Origin: an uncultured bacterium
GTDB lineage: Bacteria > CAYUVA01
DNA length: 64,000 nucleotides
NCBI GenBank assembly: GCA_964448115.1
Contig: CAYUVA010000016.1
Span: forward strand, 1-64,000
Direction: 5' to 3'
The notes beneath the pieces were generated by a model, which was not told the origin of the DNA, searched no databases, and saw only the letters and a list, made by a program, of their open reading frames with translations. The translations under genes were made by a program, and so were the position numbers. Positions 2,283 to 16,663 of this stretch are shown here, in pieces; the stretch's first letter is position 1; every line of letters starts with the position of its first letter.

Positions 2283-3461
2283 TCAGGGAATTATTTCTGC
2301 CTCGATATTGCCATCCTTGAGGTAGGTCTTGATCCTTGCGCTTGTATTTATATTTCTCTTTAGCAATTGCAATGCTACCTCATTCTCGATCAGATTCTGT
2401 ATGGCTCGCTTTAATGGTCTAGCCCCGTAGTTTGGATCGAATCCGACCTCAGCCAGATGTTGATAGACCTGTTGCTCTATCTCAAGGGTTATGTCTTTTT
2501 CAGCCAATCGCTTCTGTATGCGCTCGATAAGCAGATGCACGCTCTGTATCACCTGTTCCCTGGTGAGCGGCTCGAAGATGATTATATCATCGATGCGGTT
2601 GAGAAACTCGGGCTTGAAGAACGATTGCAGTTCCTTAGTTACCGCCTGGCGCATCCGCTCTAACTCCTGTTTAAGCTGTTCCTGGCTGATATCTGGTGTC
2701 AGGGAGTGTATAAACCTGGAGCCGAGGTTGGAGGTCATAATTACAATAGTATTTCTGAAGTCAACGGTCTTACCCTTTGGGTCGGTAAGTCTTCCATCAT
2801 CGAGCAATTGGAGCAACAGGTGAAAGACCTCAGGGTGTGCTTTTTCGATCTCATCAAAAAGCACCACCGAGTATGGTTTGCGTCTGATCGCCTCGGTCAG
2901 TTGCCCCCCTTCCTCGTAGCCGACATATCCTGGAGGTGCTCCAATGAGCCTTGAGACAGAGAATTTCTCCATATATTCGGACATATCGATGCGCACCGGG
3001 GCAGCCTGGTCGATGAGATCAAGCGCCTTGTCAGGTACAAAGCGGTCGGTGATATACCGTGCAGAGAGCTTGGCGGCTGCCACGATGGCATCGTCGGTTA
3101 TGCAGACATCATGGTGTTTTTCATATTTATCCTTCAATCCATGCAGAATTTTTATAGTGTCCTCGATGGAGGGTTCTTCGACCAGCACTGGCTGGAACCT
3201 TCGCTGCGTGGCGCCATCTTTCTCGATATATTTTCGCTATTCATCGATCGTTGTAGCGCCCACGCATTGCAGCTCCCCGCGAGCGAGCGCCGGCTTTAAC
3301 ATGTTGGATGCATCGATGCTCCCCTCGGCAGCGCCGGCTCCGACAACATTATGCAGCTCGTCTATGAAAAGGATGATTTTTCCGGCTGCTTGCTTTACCT
3401 TGTCGATGATCGTCTTTAGCCTCTCCTCGAATTCGCCACGGTATTTAGCGCCGGCGACCAC
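2283..3461 (-). pseudogene. clpB: clpB/clpC-type AAA+ chaperone remnant (5' truncation, in-frame TAG, internal in-frame deletion)
   Basis: The two minus-strand ORFs share a frame: [145 protein letters not shown]. Neither Walker A motif is present. Confidence 0.85.
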
Positions 3462-3803
3462 GTACGAATTTTTATTTCCTTAATCAGCGCACGGTAACTA
3501 TATTCATGTCTATTGATAAGAAAATGTTCTGCCATTACATTATATATTGTATTTATATGTTTTTATTGAATTTGATCGAAAATCCACCTAGCCAATCTCT
3601 CTTTGATAGTCTTAGGGGGCGATGATCCTTAATTTGTGGGCTTTATAAGCCAGGTGATCTCCCTTAATTTCTTTCATCAATAAAAAAATCACAACCATTT
3701 TGTGCTAAATTCAGCCTTCAATGTGTGCTAACTGTCTATTTATTAAAACAATTATTTTATAATACATTTATAAGCTGATAACAATAAATCAAGGATATTA
3801 TTA

Positions 3804-3832
3804 TTGACAATGGCTATAAGATGATTTATATT
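3804..3832 (+). promoter_or_regulatory. Sigma70-type promoter for the 1756-aa gene (probably leaderless transcript)
   Basis: TTGACA (3804-3809), 17-nt spacer, TATATT (3827-3832). The ATG is at 3840 with no SD. Confidence 0.6.
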
Positions 3833-3839
3833 ATATTAT

Positions 3840-6800
3840 ATGAAGATAGCGTTGGAAATAATTATAGTATCGCTTTTTACTATTGTTATACTTGGATTTT
3901 CTCTGATATATAATTCCTGCGAGAGCTGTCATGGACCGACTCCGACCCCATCCCCTGAACCAACATCAGCTACTATTCCGCCTACCTTTACTAATAGTCC
4001 TAGTTTCACACCCACTTGTACTCTCTCTCAAACACCTACCGAAACCGCGATAGATACCCCAACTCCCACAAGTACACCATACGATACCTTCACGCCGACT
4101 ACTATTATCACTAGCACTCCTACTGCCAGTTTCACGCCTAGTTTCACAGCAACCCCGACAGCAACTCGCACACCGACTGCAACATATTCCCCTAGCCCGA
4201 CAATTCCGTGCATTCATTTCGACAGGGATTTATACATCGGTTACGGAGATAGAGCTGTCATAACCGTTTATGATCCTTCAGCAAACAAGGACCCGAAGCA
4301 GCAGGAACAGGTTACAATACATGTCTCCGAGGCGGGGAGCTGCAACGGCATCCAATGCATATTAACTCTCAATCTAACAGAAACATCAAGGGATAGTGGG
4401 ATCTTCAGCACCCATGCAGCCTTAAAAAATATTGGATTTGGTCATTGCGGTGATTGTGGCAAAGAATTTGCTGGTAAGGTGCATCTCTCTGTTGAAAGCG
4501 AGGCATACATCACCGCGTTATATACCTCTTATCCTATAATGGATGAAAGGTTAGCCTTGGGAAAGGGAAAGTTGCCCAGTTTTACATTTTCAAAGGACAC
4601 GATAAAGAAGAAATCCTGGGGCAGGCAATCAAATCCTCCCTGCGCTGCTTATGCCAGGTGGGTAGAAACGACGATTACTCCGACCTTTACGCCCACGGTA
4701 ACTCCCCGTTTCACTTGTACAAATCCACCTACCCCAGAGGGAGCGGTTTATTTCGATAGCTTCGAGGTTAAACCGCCTAATGGTATGGAATGGACACTTA
4801 CAAGACACGGCTTTTGGCATTATGACGGACCAAGCAGCCGTTTCCCTGAGGTTCACACCGGGTGTCGTTCACTACATTTTGCCAATAAACTGACCGGCAA
4901 CTACGACACTGGTGAAATTGTGAAAGCTGATGCTATCACACCGTTGTTTTATGTACAAGGTCAATGTTACCTGAAGTTTTGGAGCTTCGAGGAGGTGCAG
5001 CCGGATCACAACGGATGGTATGACATACGAATGGTCTTTATTTCTCCCTGGGATGATCAGCTTTGGTATCCGATCTGGATGTCATCGCTCTCAAAGTGCG
5101 ACTGGCGAGAGGTAACCATCGACCTTAGCATGTATCAAGATACCTTTATCCAGTTGTTGTTCCATTTCAACTCGATGACCCGAAGCAAGAACAACTATCG
5201 AGGTTGGTATATCGATGATATAGCTGTATTCCCCTACCCAGAGGATACTCGATTGATTCCCAAGAAACGATTTGCTCCAACTAAGGGATTTACCCTTGAG
5301 GAGCTTGGTGGCTACCCGCTCGGACCCCCCTCAGGGATACAATCTCGAGAAATAACGGGTGGGGTGGGATTAACTTGGGAAGAAGTCAGTGGAGCAGAAG
5401 GATACAGGGTTTACCGATACGAGGGACCCGCATCCGGATACACCACTTTACAGACCGAGTTCGAGGATTATACTGCCAAAGAAGGGGTAAGCTATCTCTA
5501 TGAAGTATGTTCCTTGAGTCCAGAAGGCTCTGAAAGTGAGCCATCAGAGCCGGTAGAAGGTATGTGGGCAAGACCCTCGCCACCGAGCGGTTTCTCAGCC
5601 TTCGGCTCTGATGGCACCGTTTACTTGGAATGGATATGCAATCCGGTTGAAGAGCAGGTTGCTGAATACCTGGTATATGATGATTACGCAACCTACCCGA
5701 TCAAGCGAACCTACTGGTGTTATACTGAATTAGCTTGGACTAGATCTAATACTTATCATGTTCGGGCTATCGATGAGGCTTACAATTTAAGCGATCCTTC
5801 TCTTCCAGCATCGGTTGGTGAGCCAGACGGTCCATCCCCTACTCCCGACCTAAGTCCACCGGATATTTATCTTGAGGAAAAAAGTGATTGGATAATCGAT
5901 ATCTTCCATTACACCAAACCTTCTGTTGCTCGCTACGAGGTCGAACTTTTTCGAGATGATATCAATATCGACAGCTTGACCTGCATTTGTGAGGGAGATC
6001 ACGAGGGTTTGTGTAGTTATTACCTGGAGTATCCTGATCAGCCGGGAGTCTATTACGCTAACGCGAGGGCATGTTCTGACTACCAAGGTTACGATTGCGG
6101 AGGCTATAAAAGCTCCCACCAGGTCTATGTAGGCGCTCCACCAATAAAAATACTTAAAGAGACTAATTACCAGGTCGATGATGGTTCGTTATTCGTAACA
6201 TTTGGGTGGCTGCCGGACTTTAGCGAGGAACTTTGGTACTATGGAAATCTTACAGTATTTGATCCCATGCCTCCTTATGAGTTTCCCGAGCAACTAACAT
6301 CCAGCCAAAGTATAAATTTCGCCGATGAGTGGTTTGACTATGATTATACGAAGATCCAGATACAAGTAAGTGCATTCGACTACCTGCATAATTACCTCGG
6401 TTACCCAAGGACATATCTATGGCATATTCCAACCTTGACACCAACACCAACTGCACTACAGTCGGGCACCCCGACACCGTTTAGAACGCCACCACCCTTT
6501 TCAACGCCTACCCATAACGGCTGTGGCAATCAACCCTCGATAATCTCTTGCATTACCGATGAGGAAGGATGTTTTTTATACTTGTTTGGCGATCCGGCCG
6601 GTGGCTATGACCAGGTTCGAATCGAGTTTGAAAATATATATGAAGACTGGAGTTGTCCACCGATAGCGCCGGAATTTCCATGCGATAACAAGCCGATAGA
6701 GTTCGATGGGGATCCTGATGATGTTGAGCTTCGACTGGTGCATTATCCTTTGCAGGATCTGGGAGCGGAGCTAGAGGTCGTGGGAAGTAATCGTTACGCT

Positions 6801-9110
6801 CTGCTATGGGATGGCATAATGGATTACGGTGATAATCCGCAATATCCTTATAGCCTTCAAATACTTCCCACAAAATATGGGAAAAGATACTACCCTTTGC
6901 AAGCAAAGGTATTGTTAACCGAGACCTTCCTCAACCCGGACTGTAGCTCTTATGAGAACCAGGTGGGCAGTCAGTTTGCCAATCTATATGCAGTTCCTAA
7001 TGCATTCGATCTCAAGGTCAAAAATGGATGGGATACTCACTGGCATGATCGAGTAGAACTCGATATCCCAGGATATCATTCCCAGGTCGATATCGGATTC
7101 TGGTGGCAGCCAGAGCAAAGCGCCTGTTATTTTAAGCCCTATATATTGAAGGAGAACAACCAGACCATCTGGACGACCAAGCCTATTTATGTCTCTGGCA
7201 AACCGTTTGCTCATTACCTTGAGTCCGAGCCTAATTATGTATTTCAATGGAATTGTAAAGATCTTCAGGATAAGTGGATCCCCAGCGGCACCTATCGTGT
7301 AGTCGCTGAGATCTCAAATGTTCCCGGAGATTCAGAAAGACAGATCTCGCTCAAACCCTGGTTATTATATCTAGAGGCTCCAAAGTTAGAGGTTATCGGA
7401 TGCGATGAGGAGTCTGAGGGATATGTAATTAACCTGGAGCCTCAGCTTCCAGTGATGGTCGGTGCAACTCAATCCGGCGCATATCCAGTTTATACTTATG
7501 AGGATGACCAGGTTGTCTATGATTACATCCCTTTTGTAAACACCAACACAATAACTTGCAAGGTACATATTCCCGATGATGAGAAGTGGGATCCTGACTG
7601 GCGGGGAGAGTTATTCCTAAGAATCGATCAAGGAAATGATCTTCTCGATTTCGCAGAAAATGGTCAAGATCAAATAGTGGTCGAGTTGACCGAAGACATT
7701 TTAAACCCGGGTACAGCTACAGCTTATGTCGATCTGATAGCAGTTCAGGATATCCAACAACCATTCTCACTAGTTACCATTAAGGGCTATTTCACGCCGA
7801 GTTCTCCGGGGAAAAAGACCTACAATCCCTGCGAGGATGATTTTGCATTAACAATCGTTGTTTCTAGACCCAGTCTTTGGGTTAATGGAGTATCTTTTAT
7901 CAAGGGATTTATCGGTGGCTCCAATGGAGAAGCCGCTTCAACATTCGGTGATATAGCATCCTCAGTGCTTATCTGGGGAGATGTTCGCGATCTTGTAGTC
8001 GAGCTTTACAACTTGATCATTCCCGGTCAGGAATTCGATGAATTCAAGGCCGGTTTCGCAGCAATTGGCTTAGGGTTCGAGTTCGGCTCCCTACCGGCTG
8101 ATATACCTGATTTCTTTGCAGCTACCATCAAATCATGCGGTAAGACCGCTGGAAAGAAGCTTTGTAGATACATTCTCGATGTTGCCCATAGCACAAAGGG
8201 GCTTGGTCTAGCTCATGTCGAGGATCTGGTGCGCTATGTCAGTGTAAGAGTTCCACAAATAGATCTTCTCTGCCGTTATCAACCTTTTGAGTTTAGTTAC
8301 CTCCATGATTTCTTAAAGGCTTACGGTGATCGAACTGCTGCGCTGATCGACGATATCATTAGTCGATATGGAGATGATATTGCTGCAAAGACCGTTATCC
8401 TGGTCGCCAAAGAGTCTGTTAGTTTAACTGATGACGGTATTAGAGGGCTTGCAAGGATCATAAAGGAGCACTCCGAGGAGGTTGCAGGTGCGATATGTGA
8501 AAGATATTCGAATGATGTAATAGAAAAAACCAGCCTTTTATTTCTCAATATCCATGAAAGTCATTTTAATATTACAGGTGATGGTGTAAAATACCTGGCG
8601 GAAATAATGACAGAAAAAGAGTATGATCCTTTTTTTAAGGCGGTTACTACCTTAAAAACCGAAGTTAGCATGCTAACTGATAATGACTTTAATATAATCT
8701 TGAAGAGAGGATCAAACGGAAGCGATTTGTCTAAGAATTGGATCAAAGGAAGATTAGGTGAACGATTTTATCAAGAATCCGGATGGTATAGCAATGTCTA
8801 TGGGGAGACTGGAGATGCTACCAGAACATTTGTTGATTTTGCTGATGCACCAAATGCTGATGATGCGACAATGATATGGGAGGTAAAGACAGGTGATCTT
8901 AATTACATAAAAAGATGCGATGCCCAGCTACGCAACTATGAACAGGCTTATGTAAATGCTGAAAAAAATCTAGTTTTACCAGATGATATTTATAGCAATT
9001 TACTTTCAAGTGAATATGGTGAAGAATTAATTTCTAGGGGATGGAATCTTGTTAACTCAGGCAGAAATCTTAAATATTATGAAGACCTAATGAAATCTCT
9101 ATCAAAATGA
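3840..9110 (+). CDS. Large secreted multidomain protein with probable C-terminal PD-(D/E)xK nuclease toxin domain (candidate polymorphic toxin)
   Basis: N-terminal hydrophobic signal/anchor, Pro/Thr-rich linkers, MAM/cleaved-adhesin-like domain (WREVTIDLS..GWYIDDI), FN3-like repeats (LTWEEVSGAEGYRVYR), FlgD-Ig-like motif (QWNCKDLQDKWIPSGTYRV), pre-toxin-like helical segment (GDIASSVLIWGDVRDLV) and a C-terminal KGRLGE..FVDFAD..WEVKTG..QLRNY. Confidence 0.75.
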   Translation: MKIALEIIIVSLFTIVILGFSLIYNSCESCHGPTPTPSPEPTSATIPPTFTNSPSFTPTCTLSQTPTETAIDTPTPTSTPYDTFTPTTIITSTPTASFTPSFTATPTATRTPTATYSPSPTIPCIHFDRDLYIGYGDRAVITVYDPSANKDPKQQEQVTIHVSEAGSCNGIQCILTLNLTETSRDSGIFSTHAALKNIGFGHCGDCGKEFAGKVHLSVESEAYITALYTSYPIMDERLALGKGKLPSFTFSKDTIKKKSWGRQSNPPCAAYARWVETTITPTFTPTVTPRFTCTNPPTPEGAVYFDSFEVKPPNGMEWTLTRHGFWHYDGPSSRFPEVHTGCRSLHFANKLTGNYDTGEIVKADAITPLFYVQGQCYLKFWSFEEVQPDHNGWYDIRMVFISPWDDQLWYPIWMSSLSKCDWREVTIDLSMYQDTFIQLLFHFNSMTRSKNNYRGWYIDDIAVFPYPEDTRLIPKKRFAPTKGFTLEELGGYPLGPPSGIQSREITGGVGLTWEEVSGAEGYRVYRYEGPASGYTTLQTEFEDYTAKEGVSYLYEVCSLSPEGSESEPSEPVEGMWARPSPPSGFSAFGSDGTVYLEWICNPVEEQVAEYLVYDDYATYPIKRTYWCYTELAWTRSNTYHVRAIDEAYNLSDPSLPASVGEPDGPSPTPDLSPPDIYLEEKSDWIIDIFHYTKPSVARYEVELFRDDINIDSLTCICEGDHEGLCSYYLEYPDQPGVYYANARACSDYQGYDCGGYKSSHQVYVGAPPIKILKETNYQVDDGSLFVTFGWLPDFSEELWYYGNLTVFDPMPPYEFPEQLTSSQSINFADEWFDYDYTKIQIQVSAFDYLHNYLGYPRTYLWHIPTLTPTPTALQSGTPTPFRTPPPFSTPTHNGCGNQPSIISCITDEEGCFLYLFGDPAGGYDQVRIEFENIYEDWSCPPIAPEFPCDNKPIEFDGDPDDVELRLVHYPLQDLGAELEVVGSNRYALLWDGIMDYGDNPQYPYSLQILPTKYGKRYYPLQAKVLLTETFLNPDCSSYENQVGSQFANLYAVPNAFDLKVKNGWDTHWHDRVELDIPGYHSQVDIGFWWQPEQSACYFKPYILKENNQTIWTTKPIYVSGKPFAHYLESEPNYVFQWNCKDLQDKWIPSGTYRVVAEISNVPGDSERQISLKPWLLYLEAPKLEVIGCDEESEGYVINLEPQLPVMVGATQSGAYPVYTYEDDQVVYDYIPFVNTNTITCKVHIPDDEKWDPDWRGELFLRIDQGNDLLDFAENGQDQIVVELTEDILNPGTATAYVDLIAVQDIQQPFSLVTIKGYFTPSSPGKKTYNPCEDDFALTIVVSRPSLWVNGVSFIKGFIGGSNGEAASTFGDIASSVLIWGDVRDLVVELYNLIIPGQEFDEFKAGFAAIGLGFEFGSLPADIPDFFAATIKSCGKTAGKKLCRYILDVAHSTKGLGLAHVEDLVRYVSVRVPQIDLLCRYQPFEFSYLHDFLKAYGDRTAALIDDIISRYGDDIAAKTVILVAKESVSLTDDGIRGLARIIKEHSEEVAGAICERYSNDVIEKTSLLFLNIHESHFNITGDGVKYLAEIMTEKEYDPFFKAVTTLKTEVSMLTDNDFNIILKRGSNGSDLSKNWIKGRLGERFYQESGWYSNVYGETGDATRTFVDFADAPNADDATMIWEVKTGDLNYIKRCDAQLRNYEQAYVNAEKNLVLPDDIYSNLLSSEYGEELISRGWNLVNSGRNLKYYEDLMKSLSK

Positions 9111-10279
9111 TAATAACAAGTGCAGAATACGAAGAAATAGTTTATATATTTAATTATATTATTAGTAAGTTGTCTTACCATAATAACTTGCTAGATTTTA
9201 AATATTTTGATTTTTTGAAACATTATTTTATATTTTATGAAAATCCAAATATTGATAATTGTGGTAATTTAATAGAAAAGACACCCTTACCGCTTTTTCG
9301 TTCCATTTCACCATTTTTTTCTATTGATTATCTTTATATATTATTTGAACATTTATATAATATTAAATTAACTAAAAATAGCTATATAAAACTAACCGAT
9401 GAGATTATAATTAAGATAATAAATATTACTGAGGATTTATTGAAAAAAATAGACCTAGAGAATTTAGTAAACCAAGATTATAAAATGATATATAATATTA
9501 TTTTATCAAGAAAACATGATAAAAGATATTATTGTACAAATAAATCATTTGTGGAGGCTTTATCACATACGAAATTAGTAAATTATATCAAATTTAATAA
9601 ATATTTACAATGTACTTATCATAATAAATTTCATTACTCTTATATATACAAAATAGATGGATATGAATTATTTTATCTATTATCATTTCTTAATATTATT
9701 CTAAAGGAATCCTTGCATTATAAGAAATATAATAAAATAATATATCTTTCTGCTAGAAATGTTTTTAATATATTTATATATTTAGTCCCATTCAATTTTG
9801 ATTGGTTAATTAAAAATAAATCATCACCATATAATTTATTAAATAGATACCAATATTTATATAGTTTAATTTATAATATATATGACATTAAAAATTATCT
9901 TAATGATTACTTAGAGGTAAATATGATGAATGAAATATATCATTATTTCACAACATTAAATAATGACAATATCATATTATCAAATAATAGAATATTGGAA
10001 AAAATATTTTATTTCTATAATACATTACAACCAATAGTAAAATTAGAATTTAGTAAATACTTAATAATTAGAAGAGAATGTCTTTATGAAAAAATAAAAT
10101 ATTTTATACAAAGAATAGATGATTATTATGAATATATAGACTTTCTTTGCATAAGTTACAAAAGAGAAAGACCCAATAGCAAATATTATCCTGAAATGAA
10201 AAAAAATTTAGAAATGTTACATGAATACTTAAAAAATAATAAAAAGGAATTTATAATTATTAAAAAACTATACCTTTAA
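9107..10279 (+). CDS. Very AT-rich hypothetical protein; candidate immunity protein
   Basis: 390 open codons in DNA with only 7-13 G/C per 60 nt in sampled lines. The start overlaps the upstream stop (ATGA). Rich in Y/I/N/K/L, with no recognisable motif. Confidence 0.65.
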   Translation: MIITSAEYEEIVYIFNYIISKLSYHNNLLDFKYFDFLKHYFIFYENPNIDNCGNLIEKTPLPLFRSISPFFSIDYLYILFEHLYNIKLTKNSYIKLTDEIIIKIINITEDLLKKIDLENLVNQDYKMIYNIILSRKHDKRYYCTNKSFVEALSHTKLVNYIKFNKYLQCTYHNKFHYSYIYKIDGYELFYLLSFLNIILKESLHYKKYNKIIYLSARNVFNIFIYLVPFNFDWLIKNKSSPYNLLNRYQYLYSLIYNIYDIKNYLNDYLEVNMMNEIYHYFTTLNNDNIILSNNRILEKIFYFYNTLQPIVKLEFSKYLIIRRECLYEKIKYFIQRIDDYYEYIDFLCISYKRERPNSKYYPEMKKNLEMLHEYLKNNKKEFIIIKKLYL

Positions 10280-11717
10280 AAAATAATTGATAGCTGCGCT
10301 TGAATGAAAACCTTACATAATTGATGAACTCCCGAGGATAACGAAGCTCACGAAGAAGAGTGCGAGTAATGTAACCAGGACGAAAATATAGCATCAGCAA
10401 GCCCTTCCTGCGCAGTCGAATAAGCTCCTCATGCGAGAGATGCCGGGAGCGCACCGGCGATGAACCATAGCTTAACCCATCAAGGCTACCGTTTATTAAA
10501 CCCTCGCTAACCGCCATGTCGTAATATTCAGTCCCAGGAAGAGGAAAGGCGATGTTTATGTCGAAAAAGTCGGCGTTTAGCTCCCTGGCAAAGTCTATAG
10601 TGCTCTTGACGGTATCTTTCGTATCCCAAGGCAAGCCGATGATGAAGAAGGTATGCGACTTGATCCCCAGTTGGCGACAGAGCTTGATCGCCCTTTTGGC
10701 ATCATCGAGAGTGGTTCGCTTCTTCATTGCATCTAAGCTACTCTGGTCTCCGCTCTCGATGCCGAAGCCTATGATGTGGCAGCCGGCTTGCTTCATCCAG
10801 AGCAGCTTCTCCATGTCGATGGTATCAACCCGGCTGTTTGTCGCCCAGGTTATTTGCAGACCCCAGTCGATGATCCCGCTACAAAGCTCGATAAGCCAGT
10901 CGCGCCTCAAGGTGAACGTGTCCGCATTGAACAAAAATGTCTTGATATTAAAGCGTTCCACGCATTCTCGAAGCTCCTTAAGGATGCTCAAAGGGGTTCT
11001 ATAAACCACCCGCGAGCCGCTTATCTTGCCAGCCGGGCAGAAGATGCACTCATAGGGGCAGCCGCGGCTGGTCTGAATGGTGGTTATAGGCTTGTTGGTG
11101 TCCGGAGAGAGATAAAGGCGATTATTAAGCAGATCCCTGGCCGGAAGGGGTAGCTCATCGAAGGGCTTGATATCTCCTTTGTCATCGGTGATTTCGATAT
11201 GATCCCCGCTTCTGTAGGCTATACCGGGGATAGAGCCTAGCTCCGAGCCAAACACTATCTTGTCGATTACCGCCTCCGGCTCGATGCGTACCGCTATGTC
11301 CAAGCCTTCATAGCGCTCCATTATATCTTTGCTGAATATGAGGAAATACGCACCAAAGGCGAGGGTCTTTATTCGGGGATTGACCTGCTTGGCATACTGG
11401 CAAGCCTTCATATCTTCGTGGATGGTTGATGTAGTAACGCTGATGATCAGCCAGTCGTAGCCCTGGGCAATATCAGCCCTGAAGTCATCCCAGGTCTTAT
11501 GTTGCGCAGGATAATCTTCGATGGCGCATTGTGCTCCTTTTCCTCGCAGGATGGCTGCACACCAGGCGAGATCGAGCGGGGGAAGCACCAGTTGAACGGT
11601 CTGATCCTCAACCAGCGACTGGCAGCGATCATCCCGTCTGAAAAGACCGGATGGAGGATTTATCAGAAGTACTTTCAATGGACTATCCCTTGAGCATGGA
11701 GTTTCCACAATTGTCAA
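10260..11717 (-). CDS. Cobalamin-binding radical SAM protein
   Basis: N-terminal LLINPP...PPLDLA B12-binding-type domain, TSRGCPYECIFC (CxxxCxxC), FGIESG and FIIGLPWDT. Confidence 0.9.
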   Translation of the reverse strand: MTIVETPCSRDSPLKVLLINPPSGLFRRDDRCQSLVEDQTVQLVLPPLDLAWCAAILRGKGAQCAIEDYPAQHKTWDDFRADIAQGYDWLIISVTTSTIHEDMKACQYAKQVNPRIKTLAFGAYFLIFSKDIMERYEGLDIAVRIEPEAVIDKIVFGSELGSIPGIAYRSGDHIEITDDKGDIKPFDELPLPARDLLNNRLYLSPDTNKPITTIQTSRGCPYECIFCPAGKISGSRVVYRTPLSILKELRECVERFNIKTFLFNADTFTLRRDWLIELCSGIIDWGLQITWATNSRVDTIDMEKLLWMKQAGCHIIGFGIESGDQSSLDAMKKRTTLDDAKRAIKLCRQLGIKSHTFFIIGLPWDTKDTVKSTIDFARELNADFFDINIAFPLPGTEYYDMAVSEGLINGSLDGLSYGSSPVRSRHLSHEELIRLRRKGLLMLYFRPGYITRTLLRELRYPREFINYVRFSFKRSYQLFFKGIVF

Positions 11718-11791
11718 CTACCCCGTGGTACCGTGGTACCGGCTTTGCAGCTTTGCGTGATATTCTTTCGCTGCCAATTGAACTCAATGAC

Positions 11792-12967
11792 CTATCCCTT
11801 GAACTTCAGCTTGGACAACAGCTTTTTTATTCGTCGGCGATTAGGTATATACCTTGCAGCACGAGTTATCAACCTGTATGCAACTTTGCTTCGAGCCATG
11901 ACCGTTGCCGGATCTCCAGCATTTATCCCCCACCAGGTTACGCAGATACGGCAATAATAGGGCGGAGACTCGGTGTTTATAGCTTTGCGAATGCGCCTAT
12001 AATGGGGGCTGTTCCAGATACTGTCAAAATCATCGGTCAGAATATTCCCCATCGAGTCCGGGTATGCGCAGCAGGGGCGCACATTGCCGCTAGAATCAAT
12101 AAATGCCTGATCCCAAGGGGAGTAACATTTAAGGGGGAAGCGACTGCCTGGAGGATTATGGTCAATGGTCTTGAGGTCGCTCTCATCTTGCGCTTTATCA
12201 ATACTCTGAGCCGGGAGAATAAGCCTGATGCCATACTTCTCAGCCCTCACCGCTGCCCGCTTGAATGCCTCGTGCAGATTGTCTCTTTGTTTTGAGATCG
12301 CAAGGTAGCGGTATCTAGCCGGGATGCCATCCAGGTGCAGCTCATTGACCACCACAGAGCCGATGCCCCATTCCTTAGCCTGCTCGATCAAAGTGGGGAG
12401 CTGCTCGAAGTTGGTCGATGTTGGCACGAAGATGATCCCCACCTCGCTGCCGTTGTTTAGAGACCGCTTGATGCTAGCGGCTGACCTCAGGTTCTCGGTT
12501 ACCCGGTTATATTTCGCCCTAGGGCGGATATGCTCATAAGTACGCGCATCAGCGCCATCGAGCGACACCCAGATCTTCCCGCGCATCATAAGCAGCCTTT
12601 TCGCCAGCTTTGCGGTGAGCAATACGCCGTTGGTTACCAGGAAGGGGATAATCTCGTATTCTTCGAGAGCATCGATGATATTATCCAGGTTTTTCGCCAT
12701 CAGCGGCTCCCCGTCCCCTTGCAGCTCGACGATCTTGAGGTAGGGGAACAGCTCCTCTTTAACCCGCTGGAATACATCAGCGCCCAGGTCGCGCCCTTTT
12801 TGCGGATTGAAGGTTCTTACCCCGCATATAATGCAGTCAAGGTTACAGCGCGAGCTGCTCTCCAGCCAGATATGCACCGGCTTGGAGCGAAGATGCAACC
12901 TGCCAGCCCTTCTCTCCTCGATATTCAGCTTGAGGTTATCTTCCTTTATTTGTGTATATTTACCCAA
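11792..12967 (-). CDS. Radical SAM protein with SPASM/twitch domain
   Basis: CNLDCIIC, GDGEPL, VTNG, VSLDGA and a C-terminal CYSPW..GNVRPCC..MGNI..IWNS..CRIC. Confidence 0.88.
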   Translation of the reverse strand: MGKYTQIKEDNLKLNIEERRAGRLHLRSKPVHIWLESSSRCNLDCIICGVRTFNPQKGRDLGADVFQRVKEELFPYLKIVELQGDGEPLMAKNLDNIIDALEEYEIIPFLVTNGVLLTAKLAKRLLMMRGKIWVSLDGADARTYEHIRPRAKYNRVTENLRSAASIKRSLNNGSEVGIIFVPTSTNFEQLPTLIEQAKEWGIGSVVVNELHLDGIPARYRYLAISKQRDNLHEAFKRAAVRAEKYGIRLILPAQSIDKAQDESDLKTIDHNPPGSRFPLKCYSPWDQAFIDSSGNVRPCCAYPDSMGNILTDDFDSIWNSPHYRRIRKAINTESPPYYCRICVTWWGINAGDPATVMARSKVAYRLITRAARYIPNRRRIKKLLSKLKFKG

Positions 12968-13000
12968 TTATACCGCCTTTTACGGAGCCAACGAAAAAGA

Positions 13001-13732
13001 CTAGATTTTATTTGCAAAAAAGCCGTAGCCTAGGGTGTAGGCTCTCTGTTTGTCCAGCTTGTCCATCAAGCCGCCCAAGAGCGGAAATAGCACGAAAAAA
13101 AAAGGGAAACTTATTATTCTAAGTGGGAATAAAATCATCTTGAGCCATCTCGGCTCGATGATAACGAATAACTGCTGATAAAGGATGATTAGCATCATCG
13201 AAATATACTTGAAATAACCACCGCGCGGTTCAATCTCCTTCACATTAAAGCCGGCAGCCTCCAATAAACCGCGCAGACCATAGCGCGTGTATCTGAAGTA
13301 GTCGTGCGGCACCTGGTGCTCGCCAAATGCTAGCGGCGCAGTGCCGATTATAGCTCCGCCTGGCTTAAGCAACCGGTGCAGCTCTGCGAGAGCAAGCCAC
13401 GGCTCCCTTAGATGCTCCAAGACCTGCGTACAGATAACAATATCGAAGCTCCCATCAGCAAAGGGTAAGCTGTGCAGATCAGAAACCACATCCAGCTTCG
13501 AGTAGTCCCACTTTCCTTCACCCTCAGCGAAATCAACCGCTGTATAATGGTGATCGGCGAAAAGCTCCGCATAGGGCGCCTCCCCAGCCCCGGCATCGAG
13601 CACCTGCAAGCCGGGCGGGAAACCGCTCATCGCATCCTTAAGATAGGCATATATCGAGCCTTCCTCGTGGTTGAGCTTATGATAGAAGCTGCGGGGGAAC
13701 ATGGTGCGCAGCAGCCGGTCCTCGTATTCCAT
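13001..13732 (-). CDS. Class I SAM-dependent methyltransferase
   Basis: VLDAGAGEAPY, LPFADGSFDIVICTQVLEH and LLKPGG. Confidence 0.9.
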   Translation of the reverse strand: MEYEDRLLRTMFPRSFYHKLNHEEGSIYAYLKDAMSGFPPGLQVLDAGAGEAPYAELFADHHYTAVDFAEGEGKWDYSKLDVVSDLHSLPFADGSFDIVICTQVLEHLREPWLALAELHRLLKPGGAIIGTAPLAFGEHQVPHDYFRYTRYGLRGLLEAAGFNVKEIEPRGGYFKYISMMLIILYQQLFVIIEPRWLKMILFPLRIISFPFFFVLFPLLGGLMDKLDKQRAYTLGYGFFANKI

Positions 13733-13734
13733 CC

Positions 13735-14427
13735 CTATCTTCCCTTGAAGATGAAGTGAGCGCCGAGCAGGTTGGGGAATCGCTCGATCAGACTTTGTCC
13801 CAGTCGATTTATTCCCGGTATATGCTTGAATAAGCGCATCAGGGGATAGCTCCCCTCGGAGATGCGGTATTCGAGCAGCTCCAAGCCTGCCTCAGAAAAG
13901 TAGCGCTTGAATGAATCGAAGGTGAAGAAGCGAAGGTGAGTCCAGTCCAGGATGCCGGTCTCGCTGTACTCGAAGCGACCGAGCAGAAATCGCCAGCGCA
14001 TCCTATAGTGCAGCACATTCGGAAAGGTTACAAGCAGGTATCCAAAGCTGTCTAATAGCTCTTTTAGCCTTGCCAATACCCCGAAGGGATCGACCAAGTG
14101 CTCGATCACATCCGACATTAGGATCACCTGGTATGGGGGGCTAAGCAGATTGAGGGTCTCGGCATCTTCGATGTCAGCTTGTATGACCTTTGCCCCGCTC
14201 TTGCCTGCCTGCGAGGCGAGCAACGGGTGCACTTCTACAGCATCCACCGAGCATCCCCTGCTTTGCAATTCCTTTGTCATATAACCAGAGGCGCATCCTA
14301 TTTCTAGCACTCGCTTGTTATAGCCGACCATCTCGATGAGCATGCGGTGCACATCGGTAAGCCCATGGCGTTCGATTTGCTTCATTGCCTCGATTGCGGT
14401 CCTCTCGCTGTAAAGCAGGCTGGTCAT
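13735..14427 (-). CDS. Class I SAM-dependent methyltransferase (glycan-cluster type)
   Basis: VLEIGCASG, DVIEHLVDP and GILDWTHLRFFT. Confidence 0.9.
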   Translation of the reverse strand: MTSLLYSERTAIEAMKQIERHGLTDVHRMLIEMVGYNKRVLEIGCASGYMTKELQSRGCSVDAVEVHPLLASQAGKSGAKVIQADIEDAETLNLLSPPYQVILMSDVIEHLVDPFGVLARLKELLDSFGYLLVTFPNVLHYRMRWRFLLGRFEYSETGILDWTHLRFFTFDSFKRYFSEAGLELLEYRISEGSYPLMRLFKHIPGINRLGQSLIERFPNLLGAHFIFKGR

Positions 14428-15887
14428 TTCCTAAGATAATACAAACCCTTTCTAGCCATATCGCGCAGCATTCCGACGGTCCCCTCGGTGCGATGTATCT
14501 TGCGCAGGTACTGGAAAAATACGGCTGGGTTGCGGAGCAGGTTTCCGATGCGTCTTCGTTTGGCTTCCTCCAAGGCAGCAACTATCTGATCGCGTTTAAG
14601 TAGCGGGTACTCGATCACCGGCGAGCATCCCCCCTCGAAGCTGCTCCAGTCATCGGTGGTGAGCCAGCCGTTTTGTTTAGCCATCTCGTAGAATTCGGTG
14701 CCGGGCAGCGGGGTTGCTACCGAGAACTGATAGGTTGTCGCTCGCAGGGAATAGGCGAACTCCATTGTCTCCTTGATGGTCTGCTCGGTCTCGCCGGGCA
14801 AGCCGAACATGAAGGTTCCGTGAGTATATATGCCCACCTTGCGGCAGAGGTCAACGAAGCGGCGCACCTCTTCGAGCTTGAGCGGCTTTTTAATCGCCCT
14901 GAGTATATGTTCGCTAGCCGTCTCCACGCCGAACTTGACGCCGTGGCAGCCGGAGCGCTTCATCAGCCGCAGCGTCTCCTCGTCAATGCGCGCATCAGCC
15001 ATGCACGACCAGTAAACCTTGACCCCGCGCTTCAGGATCTCCTCGGCGACCGCCCGCGCCTTTTTCTTATCAGTGGTGAAGGAGCTGTCGTCGAAGTATA
15101 TCTCCTCGACATCATAGCGCTTGAGGACATACTCGATCTCATCAACGATCGCCACCGGATCGCGGTAGCGAAGCGATGGCTTGCCGTAGAGCACATAAGG
15201 CTCGATGCAGAAGATGCAGCGAAACGGGCAACCACGCGAGGCAATCAGGCAGACATTGGGATATTTCTTGCAAGTGGGGTCAGTATATTTGAAAAGGGGC
15301 ACATCGTCTCGTTCAGGATAGGGGAGGCTGTCGAGATCCTCGATAAGCTCACGCCTGCCGTTGTTGATGATGTTCCCCTCCTCGTCCTTGGCGGCAATAC
15401 CGGCAAGCCTTCGCCAAGAGTCGCCATTATCCATGTAAGCGTGATAGACCTGGAGCAGTGTCATCTCGTACTCTCCGAGCAGCACGCCATCGACATATTC
15501 ATGCGCCAGGGACTCTACAGGGAGAGCGGTAACATGGGGTCCGGCTAAAAGCACCAGCGCGGAAAGCTCCTTCTTGCACAGCTTTGCAAACCGCCAGTCC
15601 TGGTATATCGAAGGGGTGCCGGTCTCGATTACCACTATCTTGGGCGCCATCTCCTTGAGCTGTTTCATTGTTTGTGCTGTGGAAAGCTCCCCTGCTATGG
15701 CATCGAGGAATTTTGCCTTGATTCCCTCCCTCTTCAGCACCGCCACCGCGTAGCAGGAGAAGAATGGATAGGGATAGTATTGCAATGTCTCGGAGCGCTT
15801 GCGGATGGATGGCCACCTGGAGCCAGCCTTGACTCCATAAGCATCCGGCGCCTCATGCCACGGCGAGTTTACGATTACGACTTCCAT
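14424..15887 (-). CDS. Cobalamin-binding radical SAM protein (HpnJ-like N-terminus)
   Basis: AGSRWP..YPYP, GPHVT, ASRGCPFRCIFC, FGVET and FMFGLPGET. Confidence 0.9.
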   Translation of the reverse strand: MEVVIVNSPWHEAPDAYGVKAGSRWPSIRKRSETLQYYPYPFFSCYAVAVLKREGIKAKFLDAIAGELSTAQTMKQLKEMAPKIVVIETGTPSIYQDWRFAKLCKKELSALVLLAGPHVTALPVESLAHEYVDGVLLGEYEMTLLQVYHAYMDNGDSWRRLAGIAAKDEEGNIINNGRRELIEDLDSLPYPERDDVPLFKYTDPTCKKYPNVCLIASRGCPFRCIFCIEPYVLYGKPSLRYRDPVAIVDEIEYVLKRYDVEEIYFDDSSFTTDKKKARAVAEEILKRGVKVYWSCMADARIDEETLRLMKRSGCHGVKFGVETASEHILRAIKKPLKLEEVRRFVDLCRKVGIYTHGTFMFGLPGETEQTIKETMEFAYSLRATTYQFSVATPLPGTEFYEMAKQNGWLTTDDWSSFEGGCSPVIEYPLLKRDQIVAALEEAKRRRIGNLLRNPAVFFQYLRKIHRTEGTVGMLRDMARKGLYYLRK

Positions 15888-16663
15888 CTTTTCGTCTTCC
15901 TGTGTTTTAAGAAGAACCTGATTATATTTCTAATATGATACCAGGTCATGATGTTGAAGAGATTGCGGGCGCTCTCTCGGTGATAGCGATGGATGACCAC
16001 TGCCTGGGGATTGTAGTAGATCTTGTATCCTGCCAGGCGAATTCGATAACACCAGTCAACATCCTCGTAATATAGGGGATCGAACCTTTGGTCAAGCATG
16101 CCGACCCTATCGATAATCTCCCTTCGCACCATGAGGAAGGCGCCCAGAAACCAGTCAACTTCCCTTGCCCTTTCGTGATCCCAGTCCATCATCAGGTAAT
16201 CCCTAAGCAGCGGGTGCTGGTGGTCGTGGAAATTGGTCGCCCAGCGCAGGAAGATAGCCTTTGGAGTCGGAAAGCGCCGGCAGTTGTATTGCAGGGTGTT
16301 ATCAGGATTGAGCAGCTTGCAGCCGGCTGCACCAGCATCTTTATGCTCATCCATGAAGCGCACCATCTCGGCAAGGCAGCCATCCTGCACTATCGTATCC
16401 GGGTTGAGAAGCAATATATATCTCCCGGAGGCTTGTCTTATCGCCTGGTTATTATTGCTGGCAAAGCCCTTCTTCTGGCGGTTACAGACCAGATTTACCT
16501 GCGGATACTCGGTCTTGACCAGAAGCGAAGTCCCATCGCTGCTGGCGTTGTCAATGATGAACATCTCGAAGTCTATGCCTTGCGGCTTTTTGAAGATCGA
16601 TGGCAGGCAGGTGCGCAAGAACTGCGCCTCGTTAGTGCTTATTGTTACTATAGATAAGTCCAT
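15875..16663 (-). CDS. Glycosyltransferase family 2
   Basis: IIDNASSDG, GFASNNN, LLLNPDT and YYEDVDWCYR. Confidence 0.92.
   Translation of the reverse strand: MDLSIVTISTNEAQFLRTCLPSIFKKPQGIDFEMFIIDNASSDGTSLLVKTEYPQVNLVCNRQKKGFASNNNQAIRQASGRYILLLNPDTIVQDGCLAEMVRFMDEHKDAGAAGCKLLNPDNTLQYNCRRFPTPKAIFLRWATNFHDHQHPLLRDYLMMDWDHERAREVDWFLGAFLMVRREIIDRVGMLDQRFDPLYYEDVDWCYRIRLAGYKIYYNPQAVVIHRYHRESARNLFNIMTWYHIRNIIRFFLKHRKTKRWKS

Follow-up and report, generated by a model that had tools for sequence, protein, structure and literature searches.

A probable Sec-dependent polymorphic toxin and candidate immunity gene built around a WGDxRD domain in an uncultured bacterium

Nuclease colicins and pyocins combine a binding part, a membrane-crossing part and a nuclease, and carry a tightly linked immunity gene. 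In the CdiA-CT/CdiI and Rhs-CT/RhsI systems a sharp breakpoint precedes the toxin tip, the tip and its immunity gene are exchanged jointly, and arrays of orphan cassettes and orphan immunity genes occur. We analyzed a locus reminiscent of these systems in a stretch of 64,000 nucleotides from an uncultured bacterium (contig CAYUVA010000016.1 of assembly GCA_964448115.1, positions 1 to 64,000; hereafter the window). The locus consists of a gene for a 1756-aa protein, P0001, and a downstream gene for a 390-aa protein, P0002. As judged from sequence, it probably encodes a Sec-dependent polymorphic toxin-immunity pair, likely a toxin of bacterial competition and its antidote. Several described systems come close to it. 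Polymorphic toxins with a signal peptide, exported through Sec and the type II secretion system (T2SS), are a listed class in Table 1 of Zhang et al. (2012, PMC3482391), and Table 2 of the same paper gives the signature of the Tox-REase-7 toxins (PF15649) as GxxxE, IxD, ExK and Q. In a 2025 preprint (10.1101/2025.10.01.679605), tandem Ig-like (Big) domains are reported to precede the pre-toxin domain PT-TG (PF14449), whose most conserved residues are given as a Gly, an Asp and an Arg. Toxins associated with extracellular contractile injection systems (eCIS) are described by Geller et al. (2021, PMC8213781) as an N-terminal DUF4157, a long linker and a C-terminal toxin.

The window is the start (first 64 kb) of contig C16 in a genome of 3.98 Mb, which is assembled in 86 contigs, 94% complete and 48.1% GC. 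Open reading frame (ORF) calls place P0001 at 3840..9110 and P0002 at 9107..10279, both on the + strand, and the two frames overlap in an ATGA (...aaATGAtaata) at 9107-9110. The GC content changes in steps along the locus: it is 0.460 in the trunk of P0001, 0.470 in the WGDxRD domain described below, 0.435 in nt 8208-8522, 0.333 in nt 8523-8744, 0.353 in nt 8745-9107 (0.215 at third codon positions) and 0.182 in the P0002 ORF. The ATGA junction and every GC step sit within single Logan contigs with zero differences; these contigs are a separate assembly of the probable source sample, which is not an independent one, and no one contig covers the whole stretch. A sequence-only reading of this DNA had singled out the two ORFs with their overlap, a signal or anchor at the start, Pro/Thr-rich linkers, a helical segment with GDVRD, C-terminal GxxxE, D, EVK and QxxxY motifs, and a GC fall over the last ~600 nt of the larger ORF. 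These observations were all confirmed, the GC going stepwise from 46% to 35% to 18%, while the interpretation placed on them was supported in part, as set out for each element below.

The most informative part of P0001 is a pre-toxin-type domain at aa 1347-1456 (7878..8207, + strand), delimited by homology, alignment and AlphaFold2 (AF2) modeling and named here after its WGDVRD motif (aa 1379-1384, nt 7974-7991). When aa 1290-1756 were compared by HMMER with 1.84 billion representatives, 27 other proteins matched at E <= 0.001, 23 of them on aa ~1340-1455. The remaining four were treated as compositional; they match the helical part in several stretches, and their Pfam content is unrelated. 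In two alignments (A1 and A2) the invariant columns of the domain are a G, G-D-x-R-D, a G and a K. With a 26-row alignment AF2 modeled it as six helices with a predicted local distance difference test score (pLDDT) of 74-93, as compared with a mean pLDDT of 35 for a single-sequence prediction of aa 1290-1756. The second hydrophobic helix has a hydropathy of 1.12 in P0001 and 1.6-2.6 in seven relatives. In all 11 first-hit proteins with long tails, 386-447 aa separate the C-terminus from the point 32 aa ahead of the motif. The domain has no family in Pfam, NCBIfam, PADLOC or PHROGs, and a full-text literature search for the motif strings returned nothing related, though the supplements of the cited papers could list such proteins. 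Scanning 185,579 species genomes for a sequence pattern yielded 18 matches, six of which were confirmed, and a scan of a metagenome collection gave 48 matches with 21 confirmed, in 20 loci; among viral contigs none of five matched stretches was confirmed. These counts are lower bounds, since the pattern misses WGDIRD, YGDIRD and similar variants. An alignment search for longer proteins was crowded out and gave three already known ones among 7995 candidates. By these sequence counts the family is rare and is present in several phyla.

Of the described pre-toxin domains, PT-TG is the one to which WGDxRD compares most readily. As the preprint describes it, PT-TG is likewise a short conserved domain between trafficking parts and variable tips that serves several secretion routes; both domains have a conserved Gly, Asp and Arg in a short stretch followed by a hydrophobic helix of small residues, and both can stand behind tandem Ig-like trunks. 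The WGDxRD domain, however, is about 110 aa long and modeled as a confident six-helix bundle, whereas PT-TG is described there as poorly ordered. No PF14449 match was found in P0001, in the 27 matched proteins or in 11 module sequences, and the best match in the genome itself (13.8 bits) lies elsewhere. Comparison of the 26-row WGDxRD alignment with 11 of 13 PT-TG matches by hhalign gave a probability of 2.2% (P 0.021) over 31 columns, in register after GDxxD. Given the missing PF14449 match and this low probability, we did not file the WGDxRD domain under PT-TG.

Behind the domain lies a conserved helical linker at aa 1457-1561 (8208..8522, + strand), ARM/HEAT-like in the model, the last part of P0001 that is homologous to the family. 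The A1 profile matched only designed helical repeats among PDB sequences (best E 0.0011), in the linker region, and Foldseek with the model of the whole 410-residue module found no PDB match at E <= 0.001. The fold searches, made with this whole-module model, were dominated by the linker, so that the WGDxRD domain and the tip were barely probed by them.

The WGDxRD relatives, whose loci are cited here by L numbers, differ both ahead of the domain and behind it. Their front ends include trunks with Big_1, Invasin_D3, Laminin_G_3 or dockerin domains, as well as eCIS_core and Fic. L023 has an N-terminal eCIS_core (PF13699/DUF4157, 4e-31), a long linker, the WGDxRD domain and a C-terminal effector region, and so shares the build that Geller et al. 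describe, with WGDxRD lying between eCIS_core and effector region; P0001 differs in having a Sec-type leader and a beta-rich trunk in place of eCIS_core. Most tips look like nucleases and keep G..xE, D and [EQ]xK in register, whereas the tip of L024 is a Colicin_D (PF11429, 2.1e-10, over the cut-off) and that of L023 is unassigned. The segment that the sequence-only reading had taken for a pre-toxin region is indeed a conserved domain common to differing trafficking parts and tips.

An exchange of tips can be followed between L038 and L035, two members of a clade in which one genome record is of Fervidibacter. Over the initial 200 residues of the module they are identical (200/200), after which the identity declines to 29/40, 13/34, 7/31, 11/37 and 8/40 in successive blocks and to about 25% in the tip; the proteins downstream of the two tips are 79/224 identical. 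L035:179-3493 holds the second tip, its partner and an orphan copy, 79-83% identical, of the downstream gene that belongs to the first tip. In the cassette array at L033:2-9001, another, divergent module protein and three genes of the downstream type precede a short toxin and the partner of that toxin. Short toxins of 447-483 aa, with just 63 aa ahead of the module, also resemble orphan cassettes. Zhang et al. (2012) give as marks of polymorphic toxins that C-terminal domains differ behind a shared region and that the adjacent downstream gene changes with the tip. Among the relatives the former is seen in L038 and L035 and in the Colicin_D as against the nuclease-like tips, and the latter was found as well. 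In 12 of 13 loci the toxin stop has a same-strand ATG frame of at least 70 aa close by, starting at a distance of -4 to +99 nt, and in nine of the 12 at -4 to +15 nt, and L035 shares the ATGA overlap of the window. The 13 loci exclude L027 and L039, which duplicate others exactly, and a group of loci that are decayed or cut, namely L020, L025, L028-L031, L036, L040, L041, L043 and L044. As far as such comparisons tell, carriers of the WGDxRD domain behave as classic polymorphic toxin/immunity systems, in which the module stays identical while the tip and the gene downstream of it change in step.

Some relatives record other rearrangements. In L020 and L029-L031, in-frame deletions fuse the toxin, minus its last ~45 aa, to the last ~170 aa of a 260-aa downstream protein, and in L040 the C-terminal part of the same downstream protein is fused straight behind the WGDxRD domain. 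The tail of P0010 (336 aa, 5'-cut) past the WGDxRD domain is unlike all others and has no Pfam match; it may be a further tip type.

The cassette arrays and orphan partner genes of L033 and L035 recall CdiA-CT and Rhs-CT. P0001, unlike CdiA and Rhs proteins, has no two-partner secretion or filamentous haemagglutinin (TPS/FHA), RHS/YD, VENN or PAAR/VgrG part (0 Pfam families), and its breakpoint lies in the helical linker after WGDxRD. Nuclease colicins and pyocins share with it the three-part logic and the linked gene, and a Colicin_D stands behind WGDxRD in L024. In contrast to the colicins, the P0001 locus is chromosomal, far larger and probably cell-bound, and neither a lysis gene nor a colicin translocation domain was detected.

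In P0001, homology to any WGDxRD family member ends at the latest at query position 273, i.e., at aa 1562. Three boundaries coincide near this residue (nt 8523): the end of homology, the GC drop at nt ~8520 and the equivalent of the L038/L035 breakpoint. A hidden Markov model (HMM) of 14 other family tips gave 115 matches at E <= 100 among the 11,635 frames of the genome, and P0001 was not one of them; hhalign gave a probability of 0.2% between the P0001 tip and the 14-tip family. Since the three boundaries coincide and the family-tip HMM misses the P0001 tip, aa 1562-1756 and the downstream gene look, on sequence grounds, like one imported low-GC cassette. The view of the 400-aa module as a single conserved unit that takes in the tip was rejected when the 14-tip HMM failed to retrieve the P0001 tip.

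The tip occupies aa 1562-1756 (8523..9107, + strand), with a nuclease-like core from G1637 (nt 8748), as judged from motifs, AF2 and ESM features. It carries G1637xxxE1641, F-V-D1666, E1681-V-K1683 and Q1696xxxY1700 (nt 8748-8939), which is the Tox-REase-7 signature with V replacing I before D1666. The AF2 tip model was taken from a fold of the whole module, because the short tip was misplaced when aligned against whole modules. In module numbering it has a helix (284-301), two strands (315-320 and 331-336), helices (341-357), a strand (362-367), two helices, a strand (389-393) and a helix, with a pLDDT of 81-94 for residues 330-400; the first helix and strand, which are the E and D elements, stay below 55. 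The modeled order of secondary structure fits the PD-(D/E)xK fold, and the Foldseek search with the whole 410-residue model lists the restriction enzyme Ecl18kI at E 0.6. In an ESM-feature search of aa 1620-1756 against named clusters, Tox-REase-7 accounted for 20 of the 30 named matches (best score 0.92), followed by Tox-REase-2, -5 and -9.

Members of Tox-REase-7 over the cut-off were scarce (0 in 401 genomes, 0 in 3 and 1 in 401), so that the direct comparison was a pairwise test only. Against the bona fide Tox-REase-7 domain of L062 (68.5 bits to PF15649), the P0001 tip reached z 3.4 in local alignment with a gap-open penalty of -8 (10 of 2000 shuffles reach the score) and z 3.8 in global alignment (3 of 2000). 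At a gap-open penalty of -10 the z was just 0.9, and 385 of 2000 shuffles reached the score. The 14 other family tips gave z of -1.3 to 1.65 against L062, and the hhalign probability for the P0001 tip was 0.1%. According to the listings in PMC3482391, Tox-REase-7 toxins also sit at the C-terminus of secreted multidomain proteins with the same signature, have Sec/T2SS among their routes and are followed by an immunity gene that can encode a large all-alpha (HEAT) protein; P0001 is likewise followed by a gene. Its nearest ESM clusters score 0.91-0.92. The P0001 tip differs in the longer loop between the D strand and the ExK strand and in having no Pfam match at E <= 10, and the genome has no PF15649 match. 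The sequence-only reading had called the tip a restriction endonuclease type, for which the signature and the ESM profile speak, while the Pfam result and the low pLDDT of the E and D elements do not. Taken together, the P0001 tip is, with good probability, a divergent Tox-REase-7-like PD-(D/E)xK domain.

P0002 (9107..10279) is a real gene. At its base composition a 390-codon frame would be open by chance with P about 3e-19, and the other five frames contain 30-65 stops. It is the lowest-GC frame among the 1869 open frames of at least 300 aa in the genome, and its product is made up of 13.6% I, 12.8% Y, 12.3% L, 10.3% N and 10.3% K. Pfam, NCBIfam, PADLOC and PHROGs contain no family that matches it, Imm-HEAT, Imm23, Imm54, SUKH and the other immunity families of Pfam included, and no HMM match was found to the immunity families listed for Tox-REase-7; a HEAT-like all-alpha fold would be compatible with these profile results. 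It has no relative in its own genome and no match in an ESM-feature search. BLASTP found no match to 20 downstream ORFs of related loci, and hhalign gave a probability of 0.1-0.2% against five other downstream proteins or groups. Nor does it contain an internal repeat (score 75 as compared with 67.7 +/- 10.7 in 30 shuffles). Position, coupling and the behavior of the relatives are what make P0002 a candidate immunity protein.

The front end of P0001 starts with a hydrophobic leader at aa 1-30 (3840..3929, + strand), seen by hydropathy, which ends in Cys27-Glu-Ser-Cys30. Its aa 5-23 are the sole segment of the protein of transmembrane (TM) grade (Kyte-Doolittle 2.63). The leader is predicted to be a signal peptide, a signal anchor or a lipoprotein-like leader, and, judged from hydropathy, would supply the export element that Zhang et al. 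(2012) expect of polymorphic toxins. By composition, a first Pro/Thr-rich linker spans aa 28-128 (3921..4223, + strand), and further ones are at aa 269-307 and 855-897. Such linkers between beta-rich domains occur in 52 open frames of at least 300 aa on many contigs of the genome, and a protein at C35 near 50008 (- strand) has a matching leader of TM segment, CEGC and Pro/Thr stretch. Given these 52 frames and the second protein with the same leader, the front end of P0001 is, in sequence terms, the ordinary surface-protein build of this organism, used lineage-wide.

Among the trunk domains that had been proposed, the MAM-like and the FN3-like are weakly supported by profile matches and by overlaps with homologues. 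For the MAM-like or choice-of-anchor-J-like beta domain at aa ~280-467 (4677..5240, + strand), NCBIfam choice_anch_J (NF038128) matches aa 366-463 at E 0.015; paralogues and relatives match the region at E 1e-13 to 6e-17, and two of these homologues, P0003 and L002, carry PF20773 InhA-like_MAM. For the FN3-like domain or domains at aa ~489-615 (5304..5684, + strand), PDB entry 3mpc matches aa 502-563 at E 0.43, and the region is matched in five other genomes at E 1e-7 to 1e-4, the match in L015 overlapping fn3. At E <= 1 Pfam finds 0 families in the whole of P0001, and likewise in P0002. The expectation that no known trafficking module would be present held, as no RHS/YD, TPS/FHA, LXG/WXG, PAAR/VgrG, Hint or eCIS_core match was found in P0001 at this threshold. 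The further claim of an undescribed class of delivery trunk fell: since Sec-exported toxins (the Sec/T2SS class of PMC3482391) and Ig-like trunks (10.1101/2025.10.01.679605) are already described in these sources, the P0001 trunk is not a new class. What is undescribed at this locus is its WGDxRD domain, together with the orphan P0002.

A sigma-70-like promoter match, TTGACA-17-TATATT (11/12), lies at 3804..3832 (+ strand) and stops 8 nt short of the ATG of P0001; it is a consensus match only, and 32 such sites were found as compared with 24.3 +/- 4.9 in shuffles. No Shine-Dalgarno-like sequence is visible before the start (3804-3840). The position of the promoter-like site and the missing Shine-Dalgarno sequence suggest a leaderless or near-leaderless mRNA.

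How, then, would the locus work? P0001 would be exported via its N-terminal leader and held or displayed on the cell by Pro/Thr stalks and MAM-like, FN3-like and Ig-like domains. Its last ~410 residues would form the toxin module of WGDxRD domain, helical linker and exchangeable tip. The WGDxRD domain, whose second helix is TM-grade in relatives, may serve as a pre-toxin, membrane-interaction or translocation element. The tip, from about aa 1562, would cut nucleic acid in a competitor cell with a nuclease core of E1641, D1666, E1681 and K1683. Recombination within the helical linker would have brought in the tip and the next gene as one low-GC cassette, as the three coinciding boundaries in the window and the one swap demonstrated in relatives suggest. 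P0002, translationally coupled by the ATGA, would act in the cytoplasm of the producer as the cognate immunity protein, binding the tip and blocking it, a role that we infer from its position.

A number of findings weigh against this toxin-immunity reading. Of the 7230 candidates from a collection of 5.8 billion proteins, P0002 matched none but itself. Its 390 aa are many for an immunity protein, although the downstream ORFs of the relatives have 181-368 aa, and nothing but position speaks for that role. Among the proteins with a WGDxRD domain, about eight of ~360 aa have it between two TM helices, with a conserved helical part and without a toxin tip; the domain is therefore not exclusive to toxins. 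(These are P0013, P0014, P0015, P0019, P0023, P0026, P0027 and P0030, with loci L042-L044; in L042 there are several TM helices, and a neighbor of 478 aa, coiled-coil-like, overlaps by 1 nt.) L022, a Flagellimonas relative, has no same-strand downstream ORF. (It combines a Fic N-terminus with a 628-aa module, and a 146-aa ORF of 31% GC with a weak DUF3887 match lies on the opposite strand at L022:10323-10763 (-).) As for the tip, Pfam gave 0 families for aa 1620-1756 at E <= 10, PF15649 among those that did not match, and none for the module; 4-10 of 100 shuffled proteins attain the ESM score of 0.92 for some family; and the alignment to L062 fades at the higher gap penalty. The trunk has no close homologue, with one partial match among 7457 candidates, so tip swapping cannot be demonstrated on P0001 itself, and the variable C-termini and neighbors foreseen for homologues stand for the WGDxRD relatives and not for the trunk. 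Other genes of 22-30% GC in this genome adjoin no toxins; most of them encode membrane proteins or have a different setting, so that low GC by itself signals acquired DNA and not immunity. (Genes of 22-28% GC are at C37:4483-6519, C26:54-1127, C29:41789-44053, C19:19805-23601, C4:77665-79236, C15:36163-37653 and C25:46014-47135. Several encode multi-TM proteins adjoining ABC ATPases, and the start of C15:36163-37653 resembles, by eye, a CRISPR RAMP-type protein.)

Part of this evidence would suit another arrangement, in which P0001 is a surface adhesin or extracellular nuclease, serving attachment, extracellular-DNA degradation or scavenging, and P0002 is an unrelated acquired gene. A beta-rich trunk on Pro/Thr stalks is common in this surface proteome (the 52 frames), no relative or family is detectable for P0002, and the other low-GC genes are scattered and unrelated to toxins. 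Against it speak the ATGA coupling, with similarly tight coupling in 12 of 13 related loci, the co-variation of tips and downstream genes in the relatives, a Colicin_D tip behind the same domain, and a tip whose GC drops along with that of the downstream gene. We consider this arrangement improbable, although it is the strongest of the alternatives.

It is less probable still that the locus is the decaying relic of a once active toxin cassette, no longer expressed or functional. Decay is frequent in the relatives, with the fusions in L020, L029-L031 and L040, early stops in L032 and L034 and a frameshift in L036, and a clpB pseudogene adjoins the locus. Yet neither the frame of 1756 codons nor that of 390 codons is interrupted, the second lying in stop-prone DNA of 18% GC, every catalytic-type residue is present, and a near-consensus promoter match lies ahead of P0001. 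Finally, it is very unlikely that P0001 serves as a sensor or in defence, anchored in the membrane and with a C-terminal nuclease that works within the producer (e.g., in abortive infection), and that P0002 is a regulator: the TM-grade second WGDxRD helix of several relatives would place what follows across a membrane, but the same helix reaches only 1.12 in P0001, PADLOC yields just an artefact of the Pro/Thr linkers (E 0.018), the relatives include eCIS_core-type and Colicin_D-bearing proteins, and none of the five stretches from viral contigs was confirmed.

The surroundings of the locus add two observations. A clpB pseudogene lies at window 2283-3483 (- strand), with an in-frame stop and without the middle domain; it begins abruptly in the first ATPase domain, exactly at the start of the AT-rich region before P0001, and an intact clpB copy, 80-90% identical, is on contig C68. 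The toxin locus may have inserted into, or been rearranged beside, a duplicated clpB. On the other side, a convergent cluster at 10260-16663 (- strand) encodes two B12-binding radical SAM proteins, one SPASM radical SAM protein, two methyltransferases and a family-2 glycosyltransferase, and may be a modification or biosynthetic cluster.

The polymorphic toxin concept itself is unchanged by this locus. A bolder interpretation, to which we give a less than even chance, is that WGDxRD and the linker constitute an undescribed toxin-delivery adaptor that works across systems (Sec-dependent Ig trunks, eCIS_core and Fic, in at least five phyla), providing both a membrane-crossing or release step and a recombination site, and that P0002, acquired along with its nuclease tip from a donor very rich in AT, is the first of a new immunity family. 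If the reading of the locus as a polymorphic toxin-immunity pair is correct, the 18% GC immunity candidate would show, in extreme form, how foreign DNA can stay in frame and be coupled to a native gene, and the precise recombination junction would make cassette exchange testable. The WGDxRD domain would mark toxin genes across unrelated delivery routes and give a handle for mining new tips and immunity proteins. A phylum-rank search among about 200,000 species representatives gave no genome but this one, and all 400 genomes offered as relatives share only the domain with it; the organism thus appears to stand alone in its phylum in that collection, and the locus would provide an example of interbacterial antagonism in such a lineage.

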